A stretch of DNA of 64,000 nt from a virus. The translations under genes and the position numbers were made by a program. Where the stretch lies: IMG/VR virus record IMGVR_UViG_3300045988_101878, positions 1 to 64,000 of that record, one strand, 5' to 3'. The notes under the pieces are model-generated. The model did no database searches. It worked only from the letters and a program-made list of their open reading frames with translations, and was not told the DNA's origin. Positions 20,615-37,552 of this stretch are shown here, piece by piece (within the stretch, counting starts at the first letter, position 1; each line of letters starts with the position of its first letter).

Positions 20615-23600
20615 ATGGCAATAGATAGAAGTAAGTTGCAGAGGATGTACAAGCTTATGGCTGACAACGGCTATACCCAGGACTATAATACATTCGAGAA
20701 GAAGTTTACTGGTGACAGCAATTACGCCAACAGAAAGGCTGTGTACGACCTGTTCACAAAGAATGGTGCTGACTTGGGAGGCTCGTATGAGGAGTTTATG
20801 CGCAAGTTGCAGAAGCCAAGAGCGACAAAGCCTCAGCAGCAACCAAAGACCGCATTAGGCAGGGCACAACAGAGCGTGGCGCAACAGAAATGGGGAGGCT
20901 ATGGTGGTGCTGTGACTCCAATGCAGAATGACAGCGAGCTTGTGCGCGGATTGAAGAATGCGGACGCGGCACAGAGGTTGCAGGTTCCCGTGAGCTATGC
21001 AAAGCCGGGTGCTGTGAAACAGATGGTGAAGCAGACAAGGGAGAGACAGCATGTCGTTGGGCAGAATGTGGAGCAGGCAGGACGTAGAACCATGCAGCCA
21101 TTACGTGAAGAAGAGAAGAAAAACAGAACACCCGTTTTTGATACTGGCAACAAGAATCTGAACCAGTATGTGGTGAACACGCAGGGACAGATGGAGCGTC
21201 AGATGATGGACAGCGGACGTGAGATTGCAGGTGATCATCTTGGAGACTATATCTCCTACAATATCCGCAATGAGTTTGACGCTGCTGCCAAGAGAGGACT
21301 GGAGGCTGAGTCAGCCTTGAGCAAGGCTTCACCATTCGCCTCTATGGTAGCTGGCAAGGCTTACAACGATGCGCTTGACCCCGATATGCTTATAAAGAAT
21401 CTCTCCAAGAAAGCGGAGAGCGATATGGCAAACATTCTCTCAGACCCGAAAGTGCTTGAGAATATTGGCGTTAAGGCGGCTGCCTATGGTGTTGACCCAG
21501 AGGAATATGTAAACAAGATATTCGCTCCTGGCTTGCAAGCAAAGATAGCCGAGGAGTTTGAGAAGAGCGAGCTGAGCCGTAATATGCCTAAGAGTACGGC
21601 AGAATACATCATCCGCGGTGTTAATGACTCGATGATTGGTACTATCTTGTCAATGAGCATGATGTCAAAGAAGCAGAGACAGTATGCTCAGCAAGGAATG
21701 GCAATGACCGATAACGGCGAGAATCCTGATGTTAACCCGAATATGGGCGCAAGAGTGGCACGCGGAACATTGAGCTTTGTTGCTGATGCTCCTGTATTTG
21801 GTGCTGCTGGAAAGGCAGGTGCTGCTGTTGCAGGAAAGGTATTCGGCAATGGAGTGGCACAGATGGCGAGAGTGGCAAATTCTTCTTTGGGTGGACGTAT
21901 TGCTCGTATGGCAGGTTCTGGAATGGTGAGCCAAGGCGTTACTGGTGTGCTTTACGGTTCGACGAATGCGGCTGTACAGAACTACTCTACTGGCGACGAC
22001 ACTTCTATTGGCAATACCGTGAAGCTTATGACTATGGGCGGCGTTTCGGAAGGCGCAAGTTGGGCCACTATGGGTGGCATTGGCGGTGCTGTTGGAGGAA
22101 GCCTGTATAATGTGAGTGGTTTTAAGCGCATTCCTGCCAAGGTGTTCCAGATAGCGATGGAAGGCGTTGGTATGCACATGGGTGGTAATGTTGCCAAGAT
22201 GATAGAGGGTCATGATACCGACTGGCTGAGCGTAGAGGGGAACCTTGAGGCTTGTGCCAATGTTGTAGCCTTGAAGCTGACACACGCAAGACTGCCTAAG
22301 CGTTATGCGAAGGACGGCAAGAAGGAAAGCTATCTTGGCATGGTGGCGAGAAATCTTTATAATCTTACTGTCTCGGACAGACAGAGAACTGCCCTTGGTG
22401 GATATACTTTCACCAATGAGGAGAAAGAACAGCTGTTCGGGAGCGCGAATGCGCCAAGGAGAAAAGAATATACCTACGGATATGATAAGTATGACGTGCC
22501 TTTGACAAGAAGTGAAAATCTTATTGATTGGGCATTGAGAACCAAGAAGACAACAGCCAGAGGAAAGGGCGAGGAATCTTATAATGGCACGGACGCTGAG
22601 TTTGTGAAGACTGCCTATGACGAGATAATGGCTGACAATACCATTCCTTGGGACACAAAAGCTAAATTCTCGGCTTTGGTTATGGGAACTGTTCCTTCGG
22701 CACGTCCGATGATGGACCATATAGCGATAGAGCGTGACGAGAGAGGAGCGTATGTGGGTGAATATAGCCTTTATGGAGAGTTGCTCTCAAAGAACCGCTA
22801 TAAGACAGCCGACGAATACGTTTCAATCAAATACAATCTTGGGGCGAAGAAAGAAAACCAACGTTTGAGTAATGCCTATGGTGCAGCTCAGATAAAGGAC
22901 GAGAAGGCGGCACAAGAAACATTGGAGACTGTAGCTGAGACGTTTGGCTTTACTGCTGAACAGTTGAAGGCAGCTATGGACAAAGACCCGTTGAAGCGCA
23001 GCGAGGAGGAACAGAATGCTTGTGTGGCTCTGAGAAAGGCTTATGAGGGAGAGCAGTTCCCGGAAGGAACGTTGCATCCCGACCAGTCGCAGACAGAGGG
23101 CAAGGACGTGGTTGAGGAGAATAACCTTGGCACGGAGAATCCTAACAACGAGGCTGTGGCTGAGGTGCTGAACAACATGAATAATGCCGAAAAGGCGTTT
23201 AATGCAGCCTTGGAAAGCAACGATGTGTTGAAGCAGGAGTATGAGAGACTGGCAAAGGAGGGTCTTTCGGAACCTCAGATATACATGGAGCTGTTTAATT
23301 CGGGACTGACGCAGGAACAGCTTGCACCTTTTGCCGACTACATCAACGCCAAGGCTAAGGCTGTGGGCATGTATCGCGGAACTGAACAGAAGATTGCTGA
23401 GACCGTGCAGAAGCATGTGGAGCAATGGAGCTACAAGGGCGAGCTGAATGGCGAGAAGCAAGAGGGCGGTCAGATGGTGTTCGTGAAGGACAACAAGGGC
23501 AGACTGCTGATTGTTGGAGCGGGCGATGTTGCCTTTGATAATGATGGCAGAGCGAGAGAAAGCGTTGGCGACATGCTTAGCGTGCTTGATGCTGAGAAGG

Positions 23601-26600
23601 GAGAAATGGACTTCGTGAGCGTTAAGGACGTGAAACTGGAGCGCACTGTGGCAAGCGAGGAGTATGCAAAGGAATACCAGGAACTGTTGGAGGTTAAGAA
23701 CTCTGAGGTGTATGCTCAGAATGAGCAGCAAAAGCAGATGGAGAATGCGGCAGGTGGTGTGACACCTGAAGGTGGAAAGCCGGAACAGCCGATAACAGAG
23801 CAGGGCAACGCAGAGACTACCGTGCAGACTGGCGAGGCAAACAAGCCTGTGCGTACATTTGCCGATGGCTCACCTGTGCCCATGACAAAGGATTCGAAGG
23901 GTCGCGAGACTGCTGCCTACTCGATGATGACTCCAGAGCAGGGAGCCGAGTGGATAGAAAAGACATTCGGAGAGGATGCTGAGGCTGTGGCAGACGGTAA
24001 GATTGAGCGAGCCAAGAAGGATTTGAGCAAAGCCGAGAAGATGGATATAGACATGACCGCTGACGATGCGGACGTACTGGAGGCTAAGACCAAGAAGAAG
24101 GCTGCTATTGAAGCTGCCCAAAAGGAGCTTGAGCTTTACACCAACATCAAGATGGCGATGGTGGAGAAGAAGGTGAAGGCTACGATGGAGAAAGAAAATA
24201 CTGTAGGTGAGGTAGATAGTGCAAGTCGTGTTAGTGACGCCGTGCGCGAGAAGTTCGAGAAATCAAAGAAGATTCCCGGACGACGTGGTTCTATCACTCT
24301 TCCTGATGGAACTAAGATAACTGGTCAATACTTTTATGGCGAGGTTTCAGGACTTACACCTTCGCACGATCCGTTTAATGACTTTAAGCAGAACGAGGGA
24401 TTCCCAGTTAATGAAGACGGCTCTTCCTCAAACTCACGTTCTTACAAAGACAAGGAGTCGCGTCTGTTTACAGAGAAAATTGGCAGAGACTTTGGCGGGC
24501 AAGCACTAAAGAATGTGCCAGTTGTGCAGGATGGTATTCTGTTAAGCGGAAATGGCACGACTATGGGTAAACAACTTGCGGAACGCTATGGTACTGACGG
24601 CAAGTATTATGAGAGCCTAAGTGAAAACGCAGAAGGCTTCGGCTGGACTCCAAAGCAAATTGAAGAGGCAGGCTTTAAGGGTACTGTATATTTTGTACCC
24701 GACAAAAAGATGCCACTTACAAGTAAGACATTTGACCTTTTCAACAAGCAAGAGACAAAGAGCATTGGCAATACAGAGCAGTCGGTAAAGAATGCCAAGG
24801 TGTTAGACACGGACGAGATTAGTGCCATCGTGTCGGAGATAGAAGGAAGTGGCAGTCTTGACGCATTCTTTAACAATCCTACTGCAATAAACTCGTTGCT
24901 AAAGCGTTTAATTGATAAGGGCGTTATTGGCTTGAACGAGGTAGCCGGATTGCGCGAGGGCGAGAACAAACTTTCGGCTTCGGGCAAGGACTTTGTGAGA
25001 AACCTGCTGTTGGGCAGCGTGTTCTCGGAGGACACTATCAGAATGATGGGTGCAGACGCAGGTTTGAAGTCGAAGGCTCTGAATGGTATACGTGCCGTGC
25101 TTGACAATATGAAGCTTGGCGACTATGCCCTTAGAGGCGAGATTGACAAGGCTGTGCAGTTGGTATATGAGGCACGTCAGCAAGGTGGCGACGTGGATGC
25201 TTATTTGCGCACTCCTGCCATGTTCGGAGAAAATGCGGCAGATAGATACGACCCAATATCACAGGCTATAGCTCTTGCGCTTGACGGCAAGGCTGAGGAC
25301 TTCCGCGATTTGATGATGGCATACAACCGCAATGCGGCACATTATGCCGATGCTAATCAGTTGGACGTGTTCGGCGACCGACCTACAAAGGAGGAGTTCA
25401 TTAACGAATTTTTGAAACTTAGAAACTGGAAGAACTATGAAACAAGACGTTCAGAAAATGAAGGAAATGGCGATGTTGGCGGCACTCAAGGAAGTGAACC
25501 AGAAACGTCAGGAGGAAATGAACAGACAGAAGGAGAAGGAGTAACGCCTACTGGTGCAGGCGCGGGTTCGCCTATGGACCCAGACAGATTTGACCGAGCT
25601 GTTGAGCAGCTAAAGACTGCCAAGGGTGAGGAGCGTGAACGTATACTCGACCAAATGGAAGAGTATGTGAATGAGTTTGCCGAGAGCAATGGATATGACA
25701 AGCCAGTTGTGCTGAGAACAAAGAAGGACTTGGCGGATGCGGCGAAAGACCCAGACGACAAATTCGCAATAGAAAATATGCCAGATGATGCCCATAATCC
25801 TGGTTATTATGAGGATGGGAAAATCCATATATATCTTGAAGGCAGTAGAGGTTCTAAAGAGTTGCGCGAGACATTTGAGCACGAGTCGGTTCATGCTGAC
25901 AATGATGCAGACCCTTCAAGAGTGGAAATGCTCATTTCTTCCGTAAACGAGACTGGCGAGATAACATTTGAAGAATTAGAAAAAGTTGTTGAGACTTTAT
26001 CTAACTCAGACCGTTATTCATACCTTGCAGAAAAGCTGGATTACAACGATGGATTGCGCATGTTGGCAGATGAAGCCTTAGCGCACCTTGTTGCACATGC
26101 TTATAAAAATGGTATAGATGCGATGTCGGATATAACTAAGAATTCTACATTACTCTATATAGCAAAAAAATCATTTAAATTTAGAGAAAATGAAAGACAG
26201 CGACAAGAACGAGAATCAATTAGTGGAAGTACTGAGCAACAGCGGAAGAAAGTCGATGTTCAGCCTACACAAGAGCACAGTGGAACTGTGGGAGAAAATA
26301 ATGAAGGAAAATCCGGAGTTGTCACAGATGCAAGCATTGGGACAGGCATTCGTGATAATGAAGGAGAAGGAGAAACAATAAATGACAGAAGAAGAAAAGA
26401 AGGACTTGCAAAGAGTGGAGATAAGACACTCGAGCGGAAGAATCTCGATGATGTATCTACCGAAGAAAACGGTGGAGCATTGGAGGGAGATAAGGAAGGC
26501 AAACCCGAAAATGACAATGGAGGAAGCCCTGATAGAGACATTCAAGCAGGAGAAGAACAGCGAGAAGTAGAAGAAAAAGCAATATTTGAACAGAGAAAGG

Positions 26601-29600
26601 CTGAATATCTTAAAGCCTTGAAGGAAGGTAAGACTGGCAAAGAACTTGAAAATGCGAAATTGCATTACAAGTTTTCTTTCTTGGACTACCAAAATATAAT
26701 GGGCGTAACTGACGCTGAGTCGCTTGAAAAATTATGGAAGAGGGAGCTTGAATCGGCAAAGGATTCTAATGGTATTGGAAGTGAAGAGGCTCTTGCCATT
26801 CTTCCTAAGAAGGAAGAGAAAACGTTTGATCCGATTGGTAAGGCTGCGGAGAACTACAAGAAAGACCATCCTTTGACAGATGAGGAGATTAGGAGTAGCG
26901 ATGTGGACGACATTGCAAAGGATATGGCTGTAGATTATCTGAATGGCGAGGTGACGGATGATTTGCATCGTGCCGTTTATGAGAGCATCTATGAAAAGGT
27001 GAAGGATGCGAAGATGAAAAACGCCACTAAGCAAGCGGATAATAAAACAGAAACTACCGAAACTCCTAATGTGGAAGCCTCAGCAAGCCCTATTGAGGGA
27101 ATGAAGAATGCTGCCGAGAAGTTTGCTAAAGAGAAAGAGGCTGCTGTAGAAGCTATGGGCGAAGTGAAGAAGCCTCAGCAAAAGGCTGACGATGCAGCTG
27201 TGGAAGCGTCGAACAAGAAGGTTAACGACCTTTGGAACGACTTGCTGAAAGCAGGCAGAGAGGATTTGTCGGCATCATTCATCGGACTTAACGCAAGACA
27301 GCTTGAAGTGCTGCCTAAACTTGTGAGTGCAATGGCAGAGAACGCTTACCTAAGAATAAAGAGAGGTATGCACAATCTTGAAGACGTGGTAAAAGAAATG
27401 CGCAAGGAGTTTGCTCCAGCAGCCCAGGTGTTCAAGAAGGAAGATGTGGATGCCATCTACGAGCAGATGATGAACATTCGCTATCGTGACGGCGAACAAC
27501 GCATGAGCTTGAAGGAATGGGCAGACTACTACGAGAAGATTTCACCTAAGCACAAGGAGGAACTTGTGGGCGACTCCAAGGAGGCAGAAGAGAGAAAGAT
27601 ACGCGAGAAGAAATTTATAGACAAAGTGAACCTTCGTCTTGGTTTCGGACAGAAGATTAACGGCATCGTAGAGCTGAGAAAGATGGCAGAGGAATGTGGA
27701 CTGAAAGACGTGAAGGACACGGACTTGCAGGAACTTGCCGAGACAGCCATCGTACAGAGAGCGAGAGGTATCGCTTCTTCGGAGTCAACCAATAATACCG
27801 AGAAGTTCAAACGTATAAAGAAACTCTACGAGAATCAGCCGAGCCTTAATCAGCGTGACTCAGAGAGAGTGATGAAGCAGCAGTATTCCACACCTGCTCC
27901 TTACGCATTCCTTGCAGACATGTATGTGAAGGCAGGAATTGAAGTAAAGAGCGCATTGGAGCCAAGTGCCGGAAACGGAATGCTGACAATAGGCTTGCCT
28001 AAGGATGCGGTACATGTGAACGACATCGACGCACAGCGACTTGCCAACTTGCAGAGACAAGGCTTCAAGAACGTAACAAGCCAAGACGGAACACAGCCGT
28101 TTGCGGACAAGGACGTGGACGTGGTTGTGACAAACCCACCATTTGGAAGTGCCACACCAAGGGATTATGACGGTTATACTATCTCTTCATTGGAGGGACA
28201 GATGGCTATCAATGCCTTGGAGAGCATGAAAGACAACGGTCGTGCAGCCATCATCATCGGCGGCAAGACGGAATACGCCAAGAACGGAAGTCTGAATCCA
28301 AAGGATAAGGCTTTCCTTGGTTATCTCTACAGCCACTATAATGTGGAGGACGTGATAAACGTGGATGGAAGCCTGTACGCAAAACAGGGCACAACATACC
28401 CGACACGCATTATATTGATTAACGGACGACGCTTTGACGAGAATGCCTATCCGCCAGTTAAGGACAAGGCAAGAGCGGAAGCCGTGAAGAGTTATGACGA
28501 ACTTTATAAAAGAATAAACGATGATATACTACGAAGTGGAAGGATGGATTCTCCCGTCGGAGAAGGAGGAGAAGATGCTAACGCAAAACCTAATAGACCG
28601 AGCGTTGCTGACGCTAATGAAGAGGGAGTACGAGCAGGAGGAAACGGAGGAGGCGAACAAAAGCCTTCAGTTCGTACTGGAGGAGTACATGACAAGACTG
28701 CCGAACCAGTTTCCGACAATGTATTGGGGACAGAAGGAGGAACCAAGCCAGGAGAAAATGGAGGACTTCCTGATGGAGCTATTGGAGCAAACGGAGCAGG
28801 GACAGAGCCTACTTCAAGCAAGGAACCAACCACTGGAACCAACAAGCAGCGAGGAAATGAACCAGGAGGAAATGGACGACCTAACACTCAGCCAAATGCT
28901 GATGAAACTACCGATGCCGGGAACGGAGGGAGACCACGGGGACAACTGGAGCGGGTGGACAAACCCGTACGTGGACTAAGTGCCGAAAAGGTTGCTTATA
29001 CGCCAAGAAGTGAAAACCCGTTCACTCTTAAAGCTGTTATGCCTGCCGACCAACAAGAGGCAGTTAATAAGAACCTCGAAAAACTGGGTGATGCAGACCA
29101 ATTCTTGGTTGACGAACTGGGCTACAACGATAAAGCAGACCTATACGCACATCTTGCAGCAGAGCAAGTAGACTCAGTAGCTCTCGCTTTGCAACAGGCA
29201 AAGAAAGGCAATGCCTTTATCATCGGTGATATGACAGGTATTGGCAAGGGTAGACAGGCAGCTTCGCTTATCAGATACGCCAAGAACCAAGGACAAGTGC
29301 CAGTATACTTCACAAAGACAGCAGGTTTGCTGAGTGACGTATATCGTGACTTGGTAGACATAGGTAGCAAAGAATTGAGACCGTTTGTATTTGGAAGCGC
29401 AAAAGAAGCTGCCATTACAGACGCTGACGGAAACGTAGTATTTGCACTACCTTCGAAGAATGAAGTGAAGCGCGTGCTTGACTATATAGAAAAGAACGGA
29501 GAACTACCAAAGGAGTATGATTACGTTCTGACGACATACAGCCAAGTAAGCAACGGCGTATATGAGTTTGACGAGAATGGCAATCGTAAGGAAAGGAAAT

Positions 29601-32600
29601 TAGCCAAAGGCAAAAAGTTTGGTGCAGCAGCAATCAGCGGACAAGCCCGACGTGACGCTATAGAAAAGCTCATGAAGAACGGCTATCTGATATTGGACGA
29701 GAGCCATACAGCAGGAGGTGACAGCGGTCAAGGCAACTACTTCCAGCACATCATTCAGAAGGCAAAGAACGTGACCTTCTTCTCTGCAACCTTCGCAAAG
29801 CGTCCCGACAACATGCCAATCTACGCGCTAAGAACGGCAATGAACCAGGGAGGAATGAAAGCATCCGACTTGATAGACGCCGTGAAGCGTGGAGGAGCCA
29901 CACTACAGGAAATCATGAGTCAGGCGCTGACCCAATGCGGACAGATGATACGTCGCGAGCGAGACATGACAGGCGTGACTATTGACTGGAAAGCCATTGA
30001 CGACCCCGAAGTTGTTGCCGAACAGCGCGAGCAGTATGACAGCATCATCGGTCTGTTCAACGACATCATCAACTTCCAAAGAACCTATGTAAGCGCATAC
30101 GTAGACAGACGTAATGAAGAACTTGCAGAGGTGCAGTCGTCGATGGGCATAAAGCGTGGCACAGAAGCCTTGGGAATAAAGAACCAACCGTTTGCAAGCA
30201 AGGCATTCAATACTGTGCAACAAGTGCTTCTCTCGCTTAAAGCAAAGTCGGCAGCAGAAAGAGCTATTGACTACTTGAAGCAAGGCATGAAGCCTGTGAT
30301 AGCATTGAACAATACCAACGAGTCGCAGACGGGTAACCTTGCGCTTGGCGAAGAAATGGACGCTCCCGACTTGGGCACATCACTAAAGAAAGGACTTGAA
30401 GGTACGCTTCGCTATACGAGCAAGAACGCTAAGGACGAAAGCGAAAGCGGATATATTAATCTGAAAGACTTGGGTGCAGATGCCGTTGAGGCATACCATG
30501 CTCTTGAAGAAAAGATAAGAAAGACAAGTACCGGACTATCGCTCTCGCCTATCGACGTTATTAAGAACGAACTGACAAAGGCAGGGTATAAGGTAGGCGA
30601 GTTGACTGGTAGACAGACAGAGTTTGTGTATAACGAGAACGGCACGGTAACGAAGGTGAAGCGTGCGGACACAGACAAGAAGAAACTTGCGAGAGAGTTT
30701 AACGACGGACAGATAGACGCGCTAATCTTGAACAAGAGTGCGGCAACTGGTATATCACTCCATGCTTCAAGCAAATATGCCGACCAGAGAAAACGAGTTA
30801 TGATTGTTGCCCAGCAGCAGCTTGACGTGAACGATGAGGTGCAGATGCGTGGACGTATAGACAGAACGGGACAGGTGGCAAGAGGCGCATACGAATACGT
30901 TGTGTCGCTTATCCCGGCAGAGCAGCGACTGTTGATGATGTTCAAGGCAAAGCTGAAATCATTGGACGCAAACACCACTTCTTCACAGAAGAGCAAGTTC
31001 AATGAAATGGAAGTAGCCGACATTACCAATAAGTACGGAGACAAGGTGGTGAAGGAATACATGGCAGAACACCTTGACTTGTATGCACGTATGGCAGACC
31101 CATTCGGATGGGAGAAATCTTATGGAGCAGACTTATCAACAGTAGACCCACAAAAGTTGGTTTCTTCTTCTGACGGCATGAATAGTGAGGCTGGAGGCGA
31201 CGCTAACAAGTTGCTTGGCCGTATGGCTTTGCTGAAAGTGAAAGAGCAAGAGAAGATGTTGCAAGAGATAGGCGACCTTTATGCAGCCGAGATACAACGT
31301 CTGAACGAAATGGGCGAAAACGACTTGGAGATAACAGAGTTGCCTTTGAAAGCTAAGACCTTAGACAGGATTATTTGGAAGGAAGGTACAGAACCAGGCG
31401 GCGACAATGCCTTTGCCGACAATACTTATATAGAGAAGGTGAATATGGCTGTACTGAAAAAGCCGATGAAAGCGGAGGAGGTAAAGAAAGCTCAGGACGG
31501 ACTCACGGGCGGCAAGTCGTGGGACGAATACCGCAAGGAGAAGCTAACCGCTGCAAAAGAATACTTTGACAAGAAGATAGCCGAAGCTACTCAGAAATAC
31601 GAGGAGCGTGCCGTTAAGGCTGCAACAAAGGTAAAGGAGAAGTATATCAAGGAAGCAAAGAAGGGTCAGAAAGAAACTGGCGTGAGCGACGAGCAGATTG
31701 AAAAGACTGCTGGCTATCAGTACGAAAACGCCTATAACGATGAGAAGACTAAGCTTGACGAAGTGGTGAAGAACCTCAAAGCGAAGTATGGCGTATTTGA
31801 GCGTGCGCTTGAAACATTCAACACAGAAGACGCATTTGTACTGCCAACAGACATGAACAATCCCGCTGAGTTGAGCGGATTCGGCAACAGCTATGGCAGA
31901 CTGATAGACATAAAGATAACTGACAACTTCTCGCCAAACGCCTCAACAATATCGTTCGCCACATTGGACGGACGAAGAAAGATAACATTCCCTATAAACG
32001 GAAAAGCAGGACTCGGAATCGACAAGGTTGATGTTATAGAAATTATTGACAGGCAGACAAGGCAGGCATCGTCGTTGGGTGACAAGAATCTACGTGTATT
32101 GAGTATGGATGCCTCCAACTGGGACAAGCTGACAAGCAACGAGAGCCGTAAGGACGGATATATCATTACCGGAAACTTGCTGCAAGGCTTGATTGACACC
32201 AAGGCAGAGTTCTTGGGTGCTCAGTTAGTGAAATATACAACAGATACAGGTGAAGTCAAAACTGGTATTTTGTTATCTGGTAATGTAAAACTGAAAAACC
32301 TTGCCAACGAGAAGCCTATTAATAGCGTAGCTGAAAAATTTGAATTGCCATCTAACAAGGGTGGCATAACAGAGGTGACATCTTCGGACGGAGACGTGAA
32401 GATAGAGCAAAGTTCAGTTTACACAAGAGAGGAATCTAACTATAACATCCGTGTTCCAAAGAGTAACAAAAAGGGAGGCAAGTATTTCCTTGATAAAGAG
32501 CTGCTGCAAATGGTTGTTGGCGGTAACTTTGAGACAAGAGGAAACACGATGTTTGCCCAGATAAAGACTGGAAAGCTAAAGGATGTACTTGACAGACTTT

Positions 32601-35600
32601 CGGAGCTTGGCGTAAAGGTAAAGGAAGAAAGCAAGGTGCATTACCGCATGGAGCTTGGCAACACCTTCTCAGACAGCAAGGAACACTTTGACGCTGTGAG
32701 AGACAGAGCTGTGGAGGAGAAAGGAATCGTTATGCCTAATCTGAATAAGGAGAAGGTGAAGGTGGTAGAGGTTGAGAAATCTCCCTTTGGTGACAATATT
32801 GAAACTTCTTTAAAAAATGCCAGAGAATGGGCAAAAGAAAACCTTGTAACAACGGGAAAGACAGAAATGCCTATTATGCGCGATGGTACATCTTATACAA
32901 TCAGCAAAAGGGCTGTTGAAAAATATCTTTCAGAAAGTGCTGTTCGTAAAAGTGAGAATCTTGACATTCATCTTTCGGTACTTCCCAAACTTACAGATGT
33001 TGTCCATGAGAGCATTGAAGCAGAGATACACCCGGATTACAAAAAGGGTGAAGACGGAATACGTGGTATTGAGAATGGATATGGTGAAGGTATTTTAGTA
33101 CATAGACTTTATGGCGCAGTAGAACTGGACGGTAAGATGTATCGTGTTAAGACTACTATGCAAGAGTTCAGAGGTGGGGAAGAAAACAAACCTCATAGCT
33201 ATGAGGTAACAAAAATAGAGCTGCTTGACTCCCCTGGAAAGCGAGAAAATCCCGACAGACCACCTTTGGTTTCATCAAACAACTCTAAAAATATAACGTC
33301 GGAAGGTTCCGAGAAAGCGAACGAATCCGACAGTCTCCCTTTGAACAGTGCAACCAACGGTTATATTTCAACTGCAAAGTTACTGCAAGGAGTTGAGAAA
33401 TCCTACGATTCGGGCAAGAAATTGCTTGATGAGAGTAAAGATTTAACAGATGGGGAGACTTTCTTTAGAAAAGAAGGCGATGGTGTTGTAACACCTGAGA
33501 AGACTTCGAATGCTATGAGCGAGCGTATCATCAAGACCGTTGAGAAGGTTGCCAAGAGAACTGGAGGCAAGGTGAAGATGGTGAACTCGGTTGAGGAGAT
33601 TGAGAACCCGAAGGTGCGCAAGGACATAGAGAACGGCAAGCAGGTGACTGGCTGGTATGACGAGAAGACGGGCGAGGTGCATCTGTATATGCCGAACATC
33701 CATGACACGTATACCGCGGAGAAAACCGTTTGGCACGAGACTGTAGGACACAAGGGCATGAGAGGTTTGCTTGGAGATAAGTTTGACTCCTACATGAGAG
33801 ACCTTTGGATGGACTTGGACAACCCTATCAATGCTGAGCTGAGAGCTTATGTGAAGGAAAAAATGAACATGAATCACCTTGGATTCTATGACGCTATTGA
33901 GGAGTTTATCGCCAAGAGCGCAGAGGACGGAAAGGGTGAGCCTGGCTTCTGGAACTACATTAAGAATAAGGTAACAGATGCCCTGCATGAGATAGGCTAC
34001 AGAGTTTCGCCTAACGTGAAGGACGTGAAGTATATGCTGTGGCTGGCGAAGAACGTGCAGAAGCATGGAGACAGTCCGCTGTGGAAGCTGAGAGCTGAGG
34101 CTGTGAGGTGGAAGATAGAGCATGAGAAGACGGAGTACACGAAGATTGAGGGCGGCGAGCTGTATGACAACGACGGCAAGAGCCATGACTTCGAGAGCAT
34201 GAGCCGCGAGGAATGGCTGGAGGCAACGGACGGAGAGATACACTACCGCACGACTCCAAGCGCTGCTACCGCTTTGGACAGATACCATCATGCCCTGGAC
34301 CGTCATAGCTATATGGCTACGGAGGCTTTCATGGACAATATGCTCTCGTTGAAGAAACTCATGGAGGCTATTGATCCATCTATCAGAAAGATAGAAGATG
34401 TGGCAAGCTCGATGAACCCATATCTGATGCAGAATATCACGGAGGGCAAGATGAGCGACAAATCCAAGCTCTTCGAAATACGCTATATGGACCCGCTTAG
34501 CAAGGCTATGTCGAGCGTGTTGGACAGCTTCGATGGCAAGAAGGTGGAGGACAGAATAAGGAACTTCAATCTGTATATGATTAGAAAGCATGGATTGGAG
34601 AGAAACCGTGTGCTGTTCGTGAGAGACAAGATAAGGGAAGAACGAAAAGTGAAGAGTGAAGAATCCAATAGTATTGATGCTTTGGAGACTGCTTGGAAGG
34701 GCGAAAAATACGACCTTAGAAAGAAGCTTGACTCGGGACAGATAGACTTGAAGGAGTACTACCGTCAGATGGACGAGTGGATTGTAACGAACTTGGACAA
34801 GGACTTTAAGGCTGAGGAGCATGACTATTCGGGTATGCACGGCTTGCAGGGTATTGCAGACAAGAAAGCAGCTTATGATGATGCCGGAGCTATTGACGAG
34901 GTAATGAGCCAGGAGGCGAGCATGGAAAGCATGAAGAAAGGCTCAGTTGCCGACTTCTGGAAGAAGGTGAAGGCAGCTACTGATTATTCTGTAAATTCGG
35001 ACTATGAGAGTGGACTGATAAGTCAAATTACACACGACGGAGTGTTGGGCATGTTTGACTGGTATGTACCGTTGAGAAAGTTTGACGAGGCTACCGCTGA
35101 GGACGTATACGGATATGTGACAGAAATGGGCGACCCAAGCAACTATATCGGCACGACGCTGATGAACGCCAAGGGACGAAAGAGCCTGAGCAATGTGGAG
35201 ATATTGGCACAGATTGGCTTAATGGGCAACCGTGCGATAAGAAACGGAGGTCAGAACACTATAAAGCAAGCCTTTGCGCGATTCGTGAGAAACAGCGGAG
35301 AGCAGAATCTTGTGAAGGAGACAAAGGTTTGGGTAGAAAAAATAGGCACAGACAGAAACGGTAACGACATTTGGGAGGAGGCTTATCCGAAGATTCCCGA
35401 AGGAGCCGAAGCTGATGAAGTTGCAGAAATTGTGGATGCCTTTGAAACGGACATGAGGGCCAAGCAAGCTAAGGGCGAGGCAAAGAGTCTGAGCAACAGC
35501 ACGGACATCGGCTTCAAGTTCCAAAGAGCGAAGGACAAGAGCCAACACTTTGTGGACGTGAAGATAGCAGGAAGAACACACAGATTTGTGGTGCTTGGCA

Positions 35601-37552
35601 ATCCGAGAGCGGCACAGGCTTTGAATGGAATGCTGGAGAATGGCAAGGCAAGCCAAAAGTGGTTGCAGACTGTGACACGATGGATGGCTATGGCCTCAAC
35701 ATCGTGGAGTCCGGAGTTTGTAATGAGAAACATCGTGAGAGACGCGGAATTTGCATCTTCGCATGTGAGGGCAAAGGAAGGTGGAATATATGCTAAGAAA
35801 TGGGCACGCTATTATGGTGAGCTTAATCCGCTGAATGTGTTCTACAATGAGGGCGCAGGAAGATTGAAGAGCATGAAGATGAAAGACTTCAAGAATGGTG
35901 TAGGCTTCGGACTGTATGCCCGATACAGAGAGGGCACGCTTGGCAACTCGAAGATGGAGCGATACTTCAAGGAGTTCATGGAGAACGGTGGCGAAACAGG
36001 TTTTGTTCAGTTGTTCTCGATGCACGACATGGAGAAGAGCTACAAGAGTATCGTTGAGAAGGAGTCGGCAAAGGGCGCGAAGAAGGTTATGGTTAATGCT
36101 ATGGAAGTGCTTAAGAATTTAGGCAAAAACGTGGAGAGTTTGAATGAGGTGGCTGAGAATATGGCACGCTTCGCCACGTATTGCACTTCAAGGGACTTGG
36201 GACGTTCGGCAGCAAGAAGCGCGTATGACGCAAAGGAGGTTTCGACAAACTTCAACCGTCATGGTTCGGGCGATGAAATAAAGAGCTTCAAGAACGGAGA
36301 AATGAGCGGTTGGCAGAAGACAAAACGAAACACATACGGCTTTGTGGCTGGCTACCTAAGAAACTACTCGATGTTCTTCAATGCTGGCATTCAGAGCACG
36401 AACCTGCTGTTCAAGAATATCAAACGTGCGCCTGTGGGTACCGCTGTTGCTATGACCTCTGCCCCGTTTGCCTTAGCGTTGATTATGGCTGCTGTCAACA
36501 ATGCTATTATACAGAATGAGGATGATAAGGACAGAGGCAACGTGAAGGATCCGTATGGCGAGTTGCCTGACTATATCAGACGAAACAATCTGTGTATATA
36601 TGTGGGCAATAACAAATTTGTGACTGTGCCGTTGGCCATTGAGCTGAGAGCGTTCTATAGTCTTGGTGACTTGGCAGCAGGACAGACGTTTGCCAAGAAC
36701 GTGAAGAGTCAGAGAAACATAGCGATGGATGCTGTGGGCTGTATGTCGCAGCTATTCCCGGTAACGGACTTCTTGAATAATCCGAATTATGAAAAGAGCT
36801 TGGAAAATGGAGTTGGTATGACTATTAAAGGTCTTGCTCCTACTGCTATAGTTCCGTTCATTGAGTGGTGGCTTAACAACGACTGGAAGGGTGCGCCAAT
36901 AAGACGAACGGGCGATAAGACAGAGCTTAACCCGGCATGGCAGAACGCCTATAATAATGTTCCGGCAAGACTTGTGGACTTGAACAAGTGGGTGAACGCC
37001 AAGACTAACAACATAGCTCCTGGCAATCCGGAAATGAAGGGTAACGATGCTCTTGACTGGATTACAGACCCGTCGATGCTTAATCATTTCTATAGCTCGT
37101 GGAGTGGCGGAATGGGCACATTCGTTCAGCGTACTGCAGGCTTGGGTGCAAAGGCAACGACTGGCAAGGCTGACGAGATAGAAGTGGGCGACGTGCCATT
37201 CTTGCGCTCACTCTTCTATACTCCAAGAGAACAGTCGAGCATGGCGAGAACCAAAGCCAAATGGTATAACTACAAGGAGGAAATGGAACAGACTATCGCC
37301 AATAACGACAAGCTGAAATCGAAGAACGTGCCGACGATGAAGAGGATTGAAAATGCTGCTGTATTAGAGAAGTTCGAAGGTTCGCCTGAGCAAAGAAAGG
37401 TGAATATCATCAAGAATGCGGAAAAGCGAATGAGACACTGGAACACTATGAAAAAGAAGTGGGCCGATGATAAGAAGCAGGTGGACTTTGCGAACCATAA
37501 TATTGAGATGATAATGCAGGAGGCGGTGGAGGAATTGGATAGGATTGAATGA
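20615..37552 (+). CDS. giant polyvalent multi-domain protein (5,645 aa): ParB-like + zincin + N6-adenine DNA methyltransferase + SNF2/strawberry-notch-type helicase + second zincin + C-terminal membrane segment
   Basis: Uninterrupted ORF in the supplied track. Motifs read directly: SHDP...LLSGNGTTMG, HESVH, EPSAGNG...NPPFG, GDMTGIGKGRQ, LILDESH, GISLHAS, QMRGRIDRTGQ, WHETVGHKG. Confidence 0.8.
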   Translation: MAIDRSKLQRMYKLMADNGYTQDYNTFEKKFTGDSNYANRKAVYDLFTKNGADLGGSYEEFMRKLQKPRATKPQQQPKTALGRAQQSVAQQKWGGYGGAVTPMQNDSELVRGLKNADAAQRLQVPVSYAKPGAVKQMVKQTRERQHVVGQNVEQAGRRTMQPLREEEKKNRTPVFDTGNKNLNQYVVNTQGQMERQMMDSGREIAGDHLGDYISYNIRNEFDAAAKRGLEAESALSKASPFASMVAGKAYNDALDPDMLIKNLSKKAESDMANILSDPKVLENIGVKAAAYGVDPEEYVNKIFAPGLQAKIAEEFEKSELSRNMPKSTAEYIIRGVNDSMIGTILSMSMMSKKQRQYAQQGMAMTDNGENPDVNPNMGARVARGTLSFVADAPVFGAAGKAGAAVAGKVFGNGVAQMARVANSSLGGRIARMAGSGMVSQGVTGVLYGSTNAAVQNYSTGDDTSIGNTVKLMTMGGVSEGASWATMGGIGGAVGGSLYNVSGFKRIPAKVFQIAMEGVGMHMGGNVAKMIEGHDTDWLSVEGNLEACANVVALKLTHARLPKRYAKDGKKESYLGMVARNLYNLTVSDRQRTALGGYTFTNEEKEQLFGSANAPRRKEYTYGYDKYDVPLTRSENLIDWALRTKKTTARGKGEESYNGTDAEFVKTAYDEIMADNTIPWDTKAKFSALVMGTVPSARPMMDHIAIERDERGAYVGEYSLYGELLSKNRYKTADEYVSIKYNLGAKKENQRLSNAYGAAQIKDEKAAQETLETVAETFGFTAEQLKAAMDKDPLKRSEEEQNACVALRKAYEGEQFPEGTLHPDQSQTEGKDVVEENNLGTENPNNEAVAEVLNNMNNAEKAFNAALESNDVLKQEYERLAKEGLSEPQIYMELFNSGLTQEQLAPFADYINAKAKAVGMYRGTEQKIAETVQKHVEQWSYKGELNGEKQEGGQMVFVKDNKGRLLIVGAGDVAFDNDGRARESVGDMLSVLDAEKGEMDFVSVKDVKLERTVASEEYAKEYQELLEVKNSEVYAQNEQQKQMENAAGGVTPEGGKPEQPITEQGNAETTVQTGEANKPVRTFADGSPVPMTKDSKGRETAAYSMMTPEQGAEWIEKTFGEDAEAVADGKIERAKKDLSKAEKMDIDMTADDADVLEAKTKKKAAIEAAQKELELYTNIKMAMVEKKVKATMEKENTVGEVDSASRVSDAVREKFEKSKKIPGRRGSITLPDGTKITGQYFYGEVSGLTPSHDPFNDFKQNEGFPVNEDGSSSNSRSYKDKESRLFTEKIGRDFGGQALKNVPVVQDGILLSGNGTTMGKQLAERYGTDGKYYESLSENAEGFGWTPKQIEEAGFKGTVYFVPDKKMPLTSKTFDLFNKQETKSIGNTEQSVKNAKVLDTDEISAIVSEIEGSGSLDAFFNNPTAINSLLKRLIDKGVIGLNEVAGLREGENKLSASGKDFVRNLLLGSVFSEDTIRMMGADAGLKSKALNGIRAVLDNMKLGDYALRGEIDKAVQLVYEARQQGGDVDAYLRTPAMFGENAADRYDPISQAIALALDGKAEDFRDLMMAYNRNAAHYADANQLDVFGDRPTKEEFINEFLKLRNWKNYETRRSENEGNGDVGGTQGSEPETSGGNEQTEGEGVTPTGAGAGSPMDPDRFDRAVEQLKTAKGEERERILDQMEEYVNEFAESNGYDKPVVLRTKKDLADAAKDPDDKFAIENMPDDAHNPGYYEDGKIHIYLEGSRGSKELRETFEHESVHADNDADPSRVEMLISSVNETGEITFEELEKVVETLSNSDRYSYLAEKLDYNDGLRMLADEALAHLVAHAYKNGIDAMSDITKNSTLLYIAKKSFKFRENERQRQERESISGSTEQQRKKVDVQPTQEHSGTVGENNEGKSGVVTDASIGTGIRDNEGEGETINDRRRKEGLAKSGDKTLERKNLDDVSTEENGGALEGDKEGKPENDNGGSPDRDIQAGEEQREVEEKAIFEQRKAEYLKALKEGKTGKELENAKLHYKFSFLDYQNIMGVTDAESLEKLWKRELESAKDSNGIGSEEALAILPKKEEKTFDPIGKAAENYKKDHPLTDEEIRSSDVDDIAKDMAVDYLNGEVTDDLHRAVYESIYEKVKDAKMKNATKQADNKTETTETPNVEASASPIEGMKNAAEKFAKEKEAAVEAMGEVKKPQQKADDAAVEASNKKVNDLWNDLLKAGREDLSASFIGLNARQLEVLPKLVSAMAENAYLRIKRGMHNLEDVVKEMRKEFAPAAQVFKKEDVDAIYEQMMNIRYRDGEQRMSLKEWADYYEKISPKHKEELVGDSKEAEERKIREKKFIDKVNLRLGFGQKINGIVELRKMAEECGLKDVKDTDLQELAETAIVQRARGIASSESTNNTEKFKRIKKLYENQPSLNQRDSERVMKQQYSTPAPYAFLADMYVKAGIEVKSALEPSAGNGMLTIGLPKDAVHVNDIDAQRLANLQRQGFKNVTSQDGTQPFADKDVDVVVTNPPFGSATPRDYDGYTISSLEGQMAINALESMKDNGRAAIIIGGKTEYAKNGSLNPKDKAFLGYLYSHYNVEDVINVDGSLYAKQGTTYPTRIILINGRRFDENAYPPVKDKARAEAVKSYDELYKRINDDILRSGRMDSPVGEGGEDANAKPNRPSVADANEEGVRAGGNGGGEQKPSVRTGGVHDKTAEPVSDNVLGTEGGTKPGENGGLPDGAIGANGAGTEPTSSKEPTTGTNKQRGNEPGGNGRPNTQPNADETTDAGNGGRPRGQLERVDKPVRGLSAEKVAYTPRSENPFTLKAVMPADQQEAVNKNLEKLGDADQFLVDELGYNDKADLYAHLAAEQVDSVALALQQAKKGNAFIIGDMTGIGKGRQAASLIRYAKNQGQVPVYFTKTAGLLSDVYRDLVDIGSKELRPFVFGSAKEAAITDADGNVVFALPSKNEVKRVLDYIEKNGELPKEYDYVLTTYSQVSNGVYEFDENGNRKERKLAKGKKFGAAAISGQARRDAIEKLMKNGYLILDESHTAGGDSGQGNYFQHIIQKAKNVTFFSATFAKRPDNMPIYALRTAMNQGGMKASDLIDAVKRGGATLQEIMSQALTQCGQMIRRERDMTGVTIDWKAIDDPEVVAEQREQYDSIIGLFNDIINFQRTYVSAYVDRRNEELAEVQSSMGIKRGTEALGIKNQPFASKAFNTVQQVLLSLKAKSAAERAIDYLKQGMKPVIALNNTNESQTGNLALGEEMDAPDLGTSLKKGLEGTLRYTSKNAKDESESGYINLKDLGADAVEAYHALEEKIRKTSTGLSLSPIDVIKNELTKAGYKVGELTGRQTEFVYNENGTVTKVKRADTDKKKLAREFNDGQIDALILNKSAATGISLHASSKYADQRKRVMIVAQQQLDVNDEVQMRGRIDRTGQVARGAYEYVVSLIPAEQRLLMMFKAKLKSLDANTTSSQKSKFNEMEVADITNKYGDKVVKEYMAEHLDLYARMADPFGWEKSYGADLSTVDPQKLVSSSDGMNSEAGGDANKLLGRMALLKVKEQEKMLQEIGDLYAAEIQRLNEMGENDLEITELPLKAKTLDRIIWKEGTEPGGDNAFADNTYIEKVNMAVLKKPMKAEEVKKAQDGLTGGKSWDEYRKEKLTAAKEYFDKKIAEATQKYEERAVKAATKVKEKYIKEAKKGQKETGVSDEQIEKTAGYQYENAYNDEKTKLDEVVKNLKAKYGVFERALETFNTEDAFVLPTDMNNPAELSGFGNSYGRLIDIKITDNFSPNASTISFATLDGRRKITFPINGKAGLGIDKVDVIEIIDRQTRQASSLGDKNLRVLSMDASNWDKLTSNESRKDGYIITGNLLQGLIDTKAEFLGAQLVKYTTDTGEVKTGILLSGNVKLKNLANEKPINSVAEKFELPSNKGGITEVTSSDGDVKIEQSSVYTREESNYNIRVPKSNKKGGKYFLDKELLQMVVGGNFETRGNTMFAQIKTGKLKDVLDRLSELGVKVKEESKVHYRMELGNTFSDSKEHFDAVRDRAVEEKGIVMPNLNKEKVKVVEVEKSPFGDNIETSLKNAREWAKENLVTTGKTEMPIMRDGTSYTISKRAVEKYLSESAVRKSENLDIHLSVLPKLTDVVHESIEAEIHPDYKKGEDGIRGIENGYGEGILVHRLYGAVELDGKMYRVKTTMQEFRGGEENKPHSYEVTKIELLDSPGKRENPDRPPLVSSNNSKNITSEGSEKANESDSLPLNSATNGYISTAKLLQGVEKSYDSGKKLLDESKDLTDGETFFRKEGDGVVTPEKTSNAMSERIIKTVEKVAKRTGGKVKMVNSVEEIENPKVRKDIENGKQVTGWYDEKTGEVHLYMPNIHDTYTAEKTVWHETVGHKGMRGLLGDKFDSYMRDLWMDLDNPINAELRAYVKEKMNMNHLGFYDAIEEFIAKSAEDGKGEPGFWNYIKNKVTDALHEIGYRVSPNVKDVKYMLWLAKNVQKHGDSPLWKLRAEAVRWKIEHEKTEYTKIEGGELYDNDGKSHDFESMSREEWLEATDGEIHYRTTPSAATALDRYHHALDRHSYMATEAFMDNMLSLKKLMEAIDPSIRKIEDVASSMNPYLMQNITEGKMSDKSKLFEIRYMDPLSKAMSSVLDSFDGKKVEDRIRNFNLYMIRKHGLERNRVLFVRDKIREERKVKSEESNSIDALETAWKGEKYDLRKKLDSGQIDLKEYYRQMDEWIVTNLDKDFKAEEHDYSGMHGLQGIADKKAAYDDAGAIDEVMSQEASMESMKKGSVADFWKKVKAATDYSVNSDYESGLISQITHDGVLGMFDWYVPLRKFDEATAEDVYGYVTEMGDPSNYIGTTLMNAKGRKSLSNVEILAQIGLMGNRAIRNGGQNTIKQAFARFVRNSGEQNLVKETKVWVEKIGTDRNGNDIWEEAYPKIPEGAEADEVAEIVDAFETDMRAKQAKGEAKSLSNSTDIGFKFQRAKDKSQHFVDVKIAGRTHRFVVLGNPRAAQALNGMLENGKASQKWLQTVTRWMAMASTSWSPEFVMRNIVRDAEFASSHVRAKEGGIYAKKWARYYGELNPLNVFYNEGAGRLKSMKMKDFKNGVGFGLYARYREGTLGNSKMERYFKEFMENGGETGFVQLFSMHDMEKSYKSIVEKESAKGAKKVMVNAMEVLKNLGKNVESLNEVAENMARFATYCTSRDLGRSAARSAYDAKEVSTNFNRHGSGDEIKSFKNGEMSGWQKTKRNTYGFVAGYLRNYSMFFNAGIQSTNLLFKNIKRAPVGTAVAMTSAPFALALIMAAVNNAIIQNEDDKDRGNVKDPYGELPDYIRRNNLCIYVGNNKFVTVPLAIELRAFYSLGDLAAGQTFAKNVKSQRNIAMDAVGCMSQLFPVTDFLNNPNYEKSLENGVGMTIKGLAPTAIVPFIEWWLNNDWKGAPIRRTGDKTELNPAWQNAYNNVPARLVDLNKWVNAKTNNIAPGNPEMKGNDALDWITDPSMLNHFYSSWSGGMGTFVQRTAGLGAKATTGKADEIEVGDVPFLRSLFYTPREQSSMARTKAKWYNYKEEMEQTIANNDKLKSKNVPTMKRIENAAVLEKFEGSPEQRKVNIIKNAEKRMRHWNTMKKKWADDKKQVDFANHNIEMIMQEAVEELDRIE
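24362..24568 (+). other. ParB/sulfiredoxin-like (DdrB-type) domain signature within the giant ORF
   Basis: LTPSHDPFNDF...VPVVQDGILLSGNGTTMG resembles the DdrB-like ParB domains described in polyvalent proteins. Confidence 0.5.
25880..25894 (+). other. first HExxH zincin motif within the giant ORF
   Basis: IHIYLEGSRGSKELRETFEHESVHAD. Confidence 0.55.
26190..26381 (+). CDS. candidate overprinted gene A: 63-aa ribbon-helix-helix-like protein in the +1 frame of the giant ORF
   Basis: Complete ATG..TAA ORF and paralogue of the next ORF. Shows a CopG/Arc-like strand-helix-turn-helix pattern (RKSMFSLHKSTVELWEKIMKENPELSQMQALGQAF). Confidence 0.45.
   Translation: MKDSDKNENQLVEVLSNSGRKSMFSLHKSTVELWEKIMKENPELSQMQALGQAFVIMKEKEKQ
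26382..26570 (+). CDS. candidate overprinted gene B: 62-aa ribbon-helix-helix-like paralogue in the +1 frame of the giant ORF
   Basis: Starts immediately after the stop of A (CAA TAA ATG). GGAG lies 9 nt upstream. Sequence RISMMYLPKKTVEHWREIRKANPKMTMEEALIETF. Confidence 0.45.
   Translation: MTEEEKKDLQRVEIRHSSGRISMMYLPKKTVEHWREIRKANPKMTMEEALIETFKQEKNSEK
27959..28147 (+). other. N6-adenine DNA methyltransferase core (motif I to motif IV) within the giant ORF
   Basis: Motif I LEPSAGNGML, then VVTNPPFGS (NPPF catalytic motif) in gamma-class order. Confidence 0.8.
28575..28979 (+). CDS. speculative +1-frame ORF encoding a 134-aa strongly acidic helical protein inside a second low-complexity linker
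   Basis: GAAGGAGGAG lies 3-4 nt upstream of ATG 28575. Sequence MLTQNLIDRALLTLMKREYEQEETEE...MEDFLMELLEQ. T-poor DNA could keep this frame open by chance. Confidence 0.2.
   Translation: MLTQNLIDRALLTLMKREYEQEETEEANKSLQFVLEEYMTRLPNQFPTMYWGQKEEPSQEKMEDFLMELLEQTEQGQSLLQARNQPLEPTSSEEMNQEEMDDLTLSQMLMKLPMPGTEGDHGDNWSGWTNPYVD
29225..30874 (+). other. SNF2/strawberry-notch-like helicase core within the giant ORF
   Basis: Motif I GDMTGIGKGRQ (29225), motif II LILDESH (DESH at 29696), GISLHAS, motif VI QMRGRIDRTGQ (30842). Confidence 0.75.
33734..33751 (+). other. second HExxH zincin motif within the giant ORF
   Basis: GEVHLYMPNIHDTYTAEKTVWHETVGHKGMRGLLG. Confidence 0.55.
36433..36510 (+). other. 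predicted transmembrane helix near the C-terminus of the giant ORF
   Basis: VGTAVAMTSAPFALALIMAAVNNAII. Confidence 0.5.

Follow-up and report, generated by a model that had tools for sequence, protein, structure and literature searches.

Does the DNA beneath a hydrophilic linker of a giant phage gene also encode small proteins in a second reading frame? The question is raised by the IMG/VR virus record IMGVR_UViG_3300045988_101878, of which positions 1 to 64,000 were analysed (this whole stretch of 64,000 nucleotides is referred to as the window). The window contains a single open frame of 5645 codons, around 17 kb long (20615..37552, + strand), which encodes a polyvalent protein and is used here as the reference frame. 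In its +1 frame lie two complete open reading frames (ORFs), ORF1 (26190..26381, + strand, 63 amino acids (aa)) and ORF2 (26382..26570, + strand, 62 aa). The observations described here make it likely that this DNA is genuinely dual coding, and that ORF1 and ORF2 are diverged copies of a real small-protein gene nested in a linker of the giant gene.

In the giant frame, the same DNA is read as a linker rich in G, E, K, R, N, D and S (26183..26575, + strand), with a hydrophobic fraction of 0.10–0.14, compared to 0.17–0.36 in other stretches of the gene. An original prediction, made from the sequence alone, described two abutting +1-frame ORFs joined as CAA TAA ATG, and both the coordinates and the frames are exact. 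Each is a complete ORF running from start to stop within another gene and in a different frame, and the same is found in related loci. The two are paralogues, as the prediction stated. Ungapped alignment gives 26 identities at 63 positions if the aligned stops are counted (26 of 62 in the prediction), and BLASTP with compositional adjustment gives 23/54 identities with E=1e-13, at a nucleotide identity of 61%. The identity between the copies in the giant frame is low, as had been noted, the count being 18/62 rather than 19/63. The mismatches are distributed 26/22/26 over the +1 codon positions, the same as counted previously, and a GGAG does end 9 nt before the second ATG.

The comparison was further analysed by a permutation test, in which the differing positions were reshuffled while both compositions and the substitution spectrum were kept. 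The BLOSUM score of ORF1 against ORF2 is clearly elevated in the +1 frame (z=3.4, p~2e-4), with values of z=-0.6 for the giant frame and z=+1.0 for the third frame. Because the excess is found only in +1, the paralogy is genuine and belongs to the +1 frame. The openness of that frame is a different matter. It had been cautioned that purine-rich DNA keeps extra frames open, and this was well founded: given the giant peptide, a stop-free +1 frame would be expected with a probability of 0.045 over ORF1 and 0.44 over ORF2. A +1 stop requires a T at the second codon position of the giant frame, and a hydrophilic linker is therefore almost automatically open in +1. For this reason, the open frame was rejected as evidence for nested genes.

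Around 60 related loci were gathered by profile searches and locus fetching. The nested family consists of five diverged alleles, here named core1 (ORF1), core2 (ORF2), core3, core4 and P0127. Of the 63 core occurrences, nearly all lie +1 to a giant frame that is open over a long distance; two short contigs (L019 and L042) and a fragmented locus (L056-58) are the exceptions. Disruption of the +1 frame in relatives, which would speak against nested genes, is not seen: all 63 copies are uninterrupted and begin with an in-frame ATG. Core2 is present in 37 of the first 38 loci fetched, with 21 nucleotide variants including that of the window.

Comparison between alleles shows which frame is conserved. 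Applied to all six pairs among four alleles, the permutation test yields z=3.4–6.2 for +1 and z=-0.5 to 1.9 when the giant frame is read. With ORF1/ORF2 set aside, the remaining five pairs have their mismatches most often at the third +1 codon position, followed by the first and then the second, and the amino-acid similarity persists across alleles that share just 55–64% nucleotide identity. A further sequence, core1', is a recombinant of a core3-like half and a core1 half, and its comparison with core1 adds nothing because the shared half is nucleotide-identical.

Within alleles, rates were calculated with the site classes of Wei-Zhang/OLGenie, which we implemented ourselves (PMC4316641, PMC7531306). 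Here dNN is the rate of changes that are nonsynonymous in both frames, dNS of those synonymous only in +1, and dSN of those synonymous only in the giant frame. For all changes, dNN=0.028, dNS=0.144 and dSN=0.041; for transitions only, the corresponding values are 0.024, 0.082 and 0.019. The ratio dNN/dNS is 0.20 (bootstrap P<5e-4), dNN/dSN is 0.69 (not significant), and changes that are synonymous only in +1 are 3.5-fold commoner than those synonymous only in the giant frame. ORF2 (core2) taken separately also gives dNN/dNS=0.20 (P=0.0075). Without site classes, the synonymous to nonsynonymous counts within core2 do not discriminate between the frames, at 9:18 in +1 and 7:18 in the giant frame. 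Overall, dNN/dNS is 0.20–0.25 over the nested ORFs, compared to 0.70–0.78 in +1 controls and 1.05–1.07 in +2 controls, as expected of purifying selection on the +1 frame.

The flanking folded domains, used as controls, show the reverse pattern. Domain X, the part of the giant frame immediately upstream of ORF1 (25545..26189, + strand), has the pattern of ordinary single-frame coding, with dSN 0.30, dNS 0.12 and dNN 0.085, and an upstream control domain gives dSN 0.40, dNS 0.07 and dNN 0.056. For the same locus pairs, dSN drops 5–6-fold, from 0.19–0.39 in domain X to 0.035–0.064 in the ORF, and a sliding window puts the switch sharply at the nested ATG. The frame-aware comparison of relatives that the original prediction proposed as a check therefore places the constraint in the +1 frame, both between and within alleles.

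The arrangement of the nested segments varies between relatives. The 30 or so residues preceding the core in some of them form a separate nested ORF in the window, here called N-ext (25437..25544, + strand, +1 frame, 35 aa), which lies directly upstream of domain X. Domain X is a module of approximately 215 aa that is present in some relatives and absent from others, and when present it comes between N-ext and the core ORFs. Where domain X is missing, N-ext is fused to the core as an N-terminal helix of about 30 residues, giving a form of 89–91 aa. In the split form, domain X stands between N-ext and the core, and each part has its own ATG; the fused forms read ACA or GCA at the codon that is ATG in the split forms. 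Tandem forms also occur, and many relatives are single-copy. The order in the window is N-ext, domain X, core1 and then core2. Truncated N-ext ORFs of 35–46 aa are found in many loci, and N-ext shows the same +1 signature as the cores (dNS 0.29, dSN 0.09, dNN 0.09).

The giant frame over ORF1 and ORF2 is under no amino-acid constraint; it is only maintained stop-free and hydrophilic, which lets the giant polypeptide continue as a flexible tether. That this frame is actively maintained is seen when the ORF peptides are back-translated using the codon usage of the genome and giant-frame stops are counted. Recoded ORF1 has a mean of 3.7 such stops, with P(0)=0.011, and recoded ORF2 has about 4, with P(0)=0.0066. 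Codons ending in T are never placed before codons starting with AA, AG or GA (0/29 and 0/30 in the two ORFs). Codon usage has been used as a criterion to distinguish the older from the newer of two overprinted frames (PMC3744397). Here the +1 frame has a codon usage typical of the genome (66th percentile for ORF1 and 77th for ORF2), in contrast to the giant frame over the same ORFs, which is atypical (0th and 6th percentiles). On this basis, the sequence suggests that the small genes came first, and that the linker of the giant gene was written over them later.

The same age order is indicated by a second nested ORF in the same giant gene. This ORF (28521..28979, + strand, 152 aa) is unrelated to ORF1 and ORF2, and is located in the +1 frame of another hydrophilic low-complexity linker. 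At least 17 loci carry it intact; dNN/dNS is 0.22 (P<5e-4), the +2 control is flat, and recoding gives P(0 giant-frame stops)=5e-5. It has free-standing homologues, one on a chromosome contig of Segatella copri (57% identity, E=3e-36) and others in related contigs, and the giant gene can thus read across a bona fide gene. The Segatella copri homologue is flanked by HU-like and HicA-like genes.

The starts of the nested ORFs resemble those of ordinary genes in the window. Real gene starts in the window have no Shine-Dalgarno motifs and a mean A fraction of 0.50 at positions -20..-1. Such A-rich leaders without Shine-Dalgarno motifs fit the mode of initiation in Bacteroidota. The nested starts have A fractions of 0.45–0.60 over the same positions, compared to 0.30 for other internal ATGs, and the minimum free energy (MFE) of folding over 60 nt is -3.8 to 0.0 kcal/mol (97th–100th percentile), compared to a gene mean of -10.7. 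The individual values are 0.50 and -2.0 kcal/mol (99th percentile) for ORF1, and 0.60 and 0.0 kcal/mol for ORF2. The leader of ORF1 (26160..26189, + strand), which is A-rich and unstructured, is thus a putative internal translation-initiation region. It also contains an A7 run (26164-26170) that lies 20 nt ahead of the ORF1 ATG and that, read in the giant frame, matches the slippery heptamer X XXY YYZ perfectly. Programmed frameshifting at this run was rejected as a general mechanism, since the run is not conserved in relatives with other junctions.

The product is predicted to be folded. An AlphaFold2 model of the 91-aa form, generated from 4 sequences, has a mean predicted local distance difference test (pLDDT) score of 86, with a helix at 2-36 (N-ext), a β-hairpin at 38-45/48-55, and helices at 56-68 and 74-90. 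When ORF1 is joined to ORF2 and modelled from the single sequence, two such domains are generated with a pLDDT of 80. The original prediction had seen in both peptides the layout of ribbon-helix-helix (RHH) repressors and antitoxins of the Arc/CopG/MetJ type. There is some likeness to these proteins, in that the size is similar and a strand leads into a pair of helices, which are joined by a short N-P-x-x-S/T turn. The models differ from RHH proteins, however, in having a two-stranded hairpin rather than a single strand, and there is no sequence, profile or structure match and no partner toxin. No Pfam RHH match was found at E up to 10 for ORF1 and ORF2, or at E up to 1 for nine allele sequences; a profile search of the PDB gave a single irrelevant match (E=1.3); hhalign against an RHH mini-alignment gave a probability of 0.6%; and the best Foldseek matches in the PDB and BFVD, using monomer and tandem models, were at E~0.1 or worse, none of them RHH, which for models of this kind is weak negative evidence. 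The RHH label is accordingly not supported, and on the basis of these models the predicted fold is left unclassified in the families searched. A toxin-antitoxin cassette was likewise rejected, because the ORFs are paralogous to each other, have no Pfam match to a toxin or antitoxin, and are single-copy in many relatives.

Two readings were originally offered for this DNA, and each holds in part. In one, the ORFs are overprinted regulator genes nested in the giant gene. The nested genes are supported by selection on +1, the suppressed synonymous rate of the giant frame, the 63 intact copies and the start contexts; the description as regulators is not. In the other, they are a relic cassette: small genes taken in at the fusion of two large ORFs, now dead and read as a disordered linker. 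Here the part that holds is the probable greater age of the small genes, as judged from their codon usage and from the free-standing relatives of the neighbouring 152-aa ORF, and the truncated N-ext ORFs could also be taken as signs of decay. However, the small genes do not behave as relics, because they are still under selection: polymorphism within alleles avoids +1 amino-acid changes (dNN/dNS 0.20, with dSN 3.5-fold below dNS), the ATG and the frame are kept in 63/63 copies, split forms always have an ATG where fused forms have none, and even N-ext carries the signature of selection. We therefore regard dead remnants as unlikely. It could also be proposed that the segment is conserved as DNA, forming a homology patch for the swapping of modules in which the +1 ORFs are incidental. 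In keeping with this, core2 adjoins at least three upstream and at least six downstream types of giant-frame module, near-identical backgrounds carry either core2 or core3, and core1' is itself recombinant. But conservation at the DNA level cannot yield a free third position together with constrained first and second positions in the +1 frame, nor can it explain amino-acid similarity between alleles at 55–64% nucleotide identity, which makes a recombination patch quite improbable. Modules are indeed shuffled at the nested segments, perhaps as a side effect rather than as the cause.

Slippage of the ribosome or RNA polymerase upstream of ORF1 would give a different outcome, namely a truncated giant protein ending in the small domain. 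The loss of one A from the A7 run in the transcript would indeed join the giant frame to ORF1. Against this, the run is not conserved, some relatives have +1 stops 4–8 codons before the ATG, every unfused copy has an ATG, and ORF2 follows directly after a TAA, so that a frameshift isoform appears very improbable. Finally, it is scarcely credible that all of this is a chance by-product of purine-rich low-complexity DNA, with frames open and similarity spurious. The K/E-rich composition is consistent with chance, and so is the open +1 frame that hydrophilic linkers are expected to have (with P up to 0.44 here), but the E value of 1e-13 is composition-adjusted, the permutations preserve composition, the third-frame and +2 controls are flat, and the predicted fold is confident.

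Nested genes are thus the reading that we prefer, and the following points weigh against it. The support for translation of the nested frame is indirect, and comes from start contexts that are A-rich and unstructured as at real genes. No Bacteroidota -7 promoter motif was found within 250 nt upstream of the starts of ORF1, ORF2 or the 152-aa ORF, leaving internal initiation on the giant mRNA as the simplest inference for how these ORFs would be translated. The estimator is mildly biased in +1, as seen from the control dNN/dNS of 0.70–0.78 and a P of 0.007 for one control, although a mild bias does not explain a dNN/dNS of 0.20. The bootstrap P-values are approximate because the sequences are related and recombining. 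ORF1 (core1) has no nucleotide variation in the sample, and selection on it is therefore supported by the between-allele comparisons only. Lastly, free-standing relatives of ORF1 and ORF2, which the original prediction suggested looking for, were not found among 1.84 billion representative proteins.

On the basis of these observations, we propose the following history for the nested genes. The small genes would have come first, and the giant gene would have become continuous by reading them in their -1 frame, purging stops in the process. The resulting linker would let the giant polypeptide run on as a flexible tether, and the phage would thereby keep a single injectable multi-effector protein as well as the small cytoplasmic proteins. 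Each small ORF would be initiated independently at its own ATG, in an A-rich and structure-free leader as at ordinary genes, in what appears to be the Shine-Dalgarno-poor, Bacteroidota-type style of this genome. The products would be folded domains of about 60 aa, consisting of a β-hairpin and two helices, preceded by a 30-residue helix where domain X is absent. As to function, our best guess is an oligomeric binding protein of small size, for example an adaptor, regulator or inhibitor, acting together with the polyvalent protein and existing as several exchangeable alleles. A broader hypothesis is rather less probable: giant polyvalent genes would be extended by read-through of entire genes lying between their parts, each small gene keeping its function while its other frame, purged of stops, turns into the flexible tether. 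The linkers would then be a systematic and unannotated reservoir of nested genes (at least three sites here), and the nested proteins, as exchangeable alleles, would partner the injected effector, for example as inhibitors, chaperones or specificity factors.

The giant gene itself comes from a gut phage of Prevotella/Segatella type. The window also encodes a portal, a terminase, a tail protein and Ant, and is therefore phage DNA; the relatives are viral contigs of 40–85 kb from gut metagenomes, with Prevotella named in two database entries. The giant protein has Pfam matches to ddrB-ParB, an MTS methyltransferase, AAA_34/Helicase_C_4 (a Strawberry-notch-type helicase), LPD3 and LPD38. It thus combines many unrelated effector domains, LPD domains among them, in a phage context, as expected of a polyvalent protein. 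Domain X carries an HExxH motif (HESVH at 25880-25894), and its sole metallopeptidase match is weak and sub-threshold (DUF6782, E=0.03); it may be a self-processing peptidase of the type described for polyvalent proteins. Stop-codon recoding was considered for the giant ORF and rejected, since the ORF is already open in the standard code, which fits it, and a search of the window for tRNAs, including suppressor tRNAs, found none.

It is worth adding some observations on the surroundings. The giant gene is strongly mosaic around core2 (L003-L051; 26570-27000 in the window). In four relatives (L001, L002, L040 and L041), it is split into two long ORFs at differing places, and since several relatives carry it split, fission and fusion of the gene are seemingly tolerated. 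An antisense ORF of 158 codons (26216-26692, - strand) is open across the same purine-rich stretch as ORF1 and ORF2, and is presumably a compositional by-product. Public metagenome gene calls (L001, L002, L039-L041) do not contain the giant ORF, and list antisense ORFs of 200–350 aa inside it; the nested ORFs appear among them by default only. Database calls of the nested ORFs as genes were rejected as evidence, because the pipelines behind them leave out the giant ORF and produce antisense artefacts. The case nearest to a free-standing gene is found in a fragmented polyvalent locus on a 106-kb bacterial-looking contig (L056, 3241-5329; also L057 and L058). Here an intact copy of the fifth allele, P0127, lies 47 nt downstream of the end of a 570-aa Kinase-PolyVal/HExxH protein; the frame equivalent to the giant one is open for 120 codons only, and is followed by a repeat of the N-terminal region of the upstream gene. 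DNA searches of phage and plasmid collections with 2.4 kb around the site gave no match, nor did a tblastn search of cultured phages with the 91-aa form, and a pattern scan of genome contigs found no relatives.

Fully nested genes are rare in double-stranded DNA (dsDNA) phages. The direction of overprinting is also unusual, as the linker of the long gene has apparently been written over older small genes, and this suggests a route by which multi-effector giants could be assembled while genes between their parts are retained. There is a practical consequence for annotation. Public pipelines overlook the giant ORF in these phages and report artefacts on the antisense strand, and nested genes would normally be thrown out, so that annotation of this phage group is unreliable. 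Occurring in several alleles, singly or in tandem, and in versions either fused or split by a domain indel, the locus is a tractable system in which to study how one sequence can serve two proteins, and what role small proteins may have for an anti-defence effector.

The domains of the giant gene include LPD38, LPD3, ddrB-ParB, a methyltransferase and an SNF2/Sbno-type helicase, which are hallmarks of the polyvalent proteins of phages and conjugative elements surveyed in 2017 (PMC5512222). The terms linker, low-complexity, overlapping and frameshift are all absent from the text of that survey, and neither this term search nor a search of the literature on polyvalent proteins and overlapping genes provided a description of genes nested in polyvalent-protein genes. 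Another parallel is found in overprinted viral genes, which have been detected by codon usage and dNN/dNS (PMC3744397, PMC8227390, PMC7531306, PMC4316641). As in the present case, order in one frame goes with disorder in the other, codon usage dates the frames, and the synonymous rate of the reference frame is suppressed. The difference is that the short nested frame is usually the novel one, whereas here it is the linker of the long gene that is indicated as novel.

The spacer of the hepatitis B virus (HBV) polymerase overlaps the preS region of the surface gene (PMC9093120, PMC3618453), and provides a further comparison. In both cases the DNA of a tolerant tether, one that connects enzymatic domains, also encodes a protein in another frame, and the constraint is asymmetric. 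However, HBV is a reverse-transcribing virus with an extremely compressed genome of 3.2 kb, while the genome here is dsDNA of ~70 kb, and its nested products are small, predicted to be folded and soluble-looking, with tandem paralogues.

In phage lambda, Rz1 lies wholly in the +1 frame of Rz, and both spanin subunits are functional and form one complex. The Rz/Rz1 spanin genes are, together with the HBV overlap, the closest known analogue of the present locus (see PMC6139136, PMC5295617): in each, a dsDNA phage carries a small gene, complete from start to stop, on the same strand as a larger gene, inside it and in its +1 frame. In the HBV overlap the host is a virus of another kind, as described above. 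They differ in that Rz is small and the two products form one complex, whereas here the host is a multi-domain gene of 17 kb, and the nested genes lie in its inter-domain linkers, at several sites and as exchangeable alleles.

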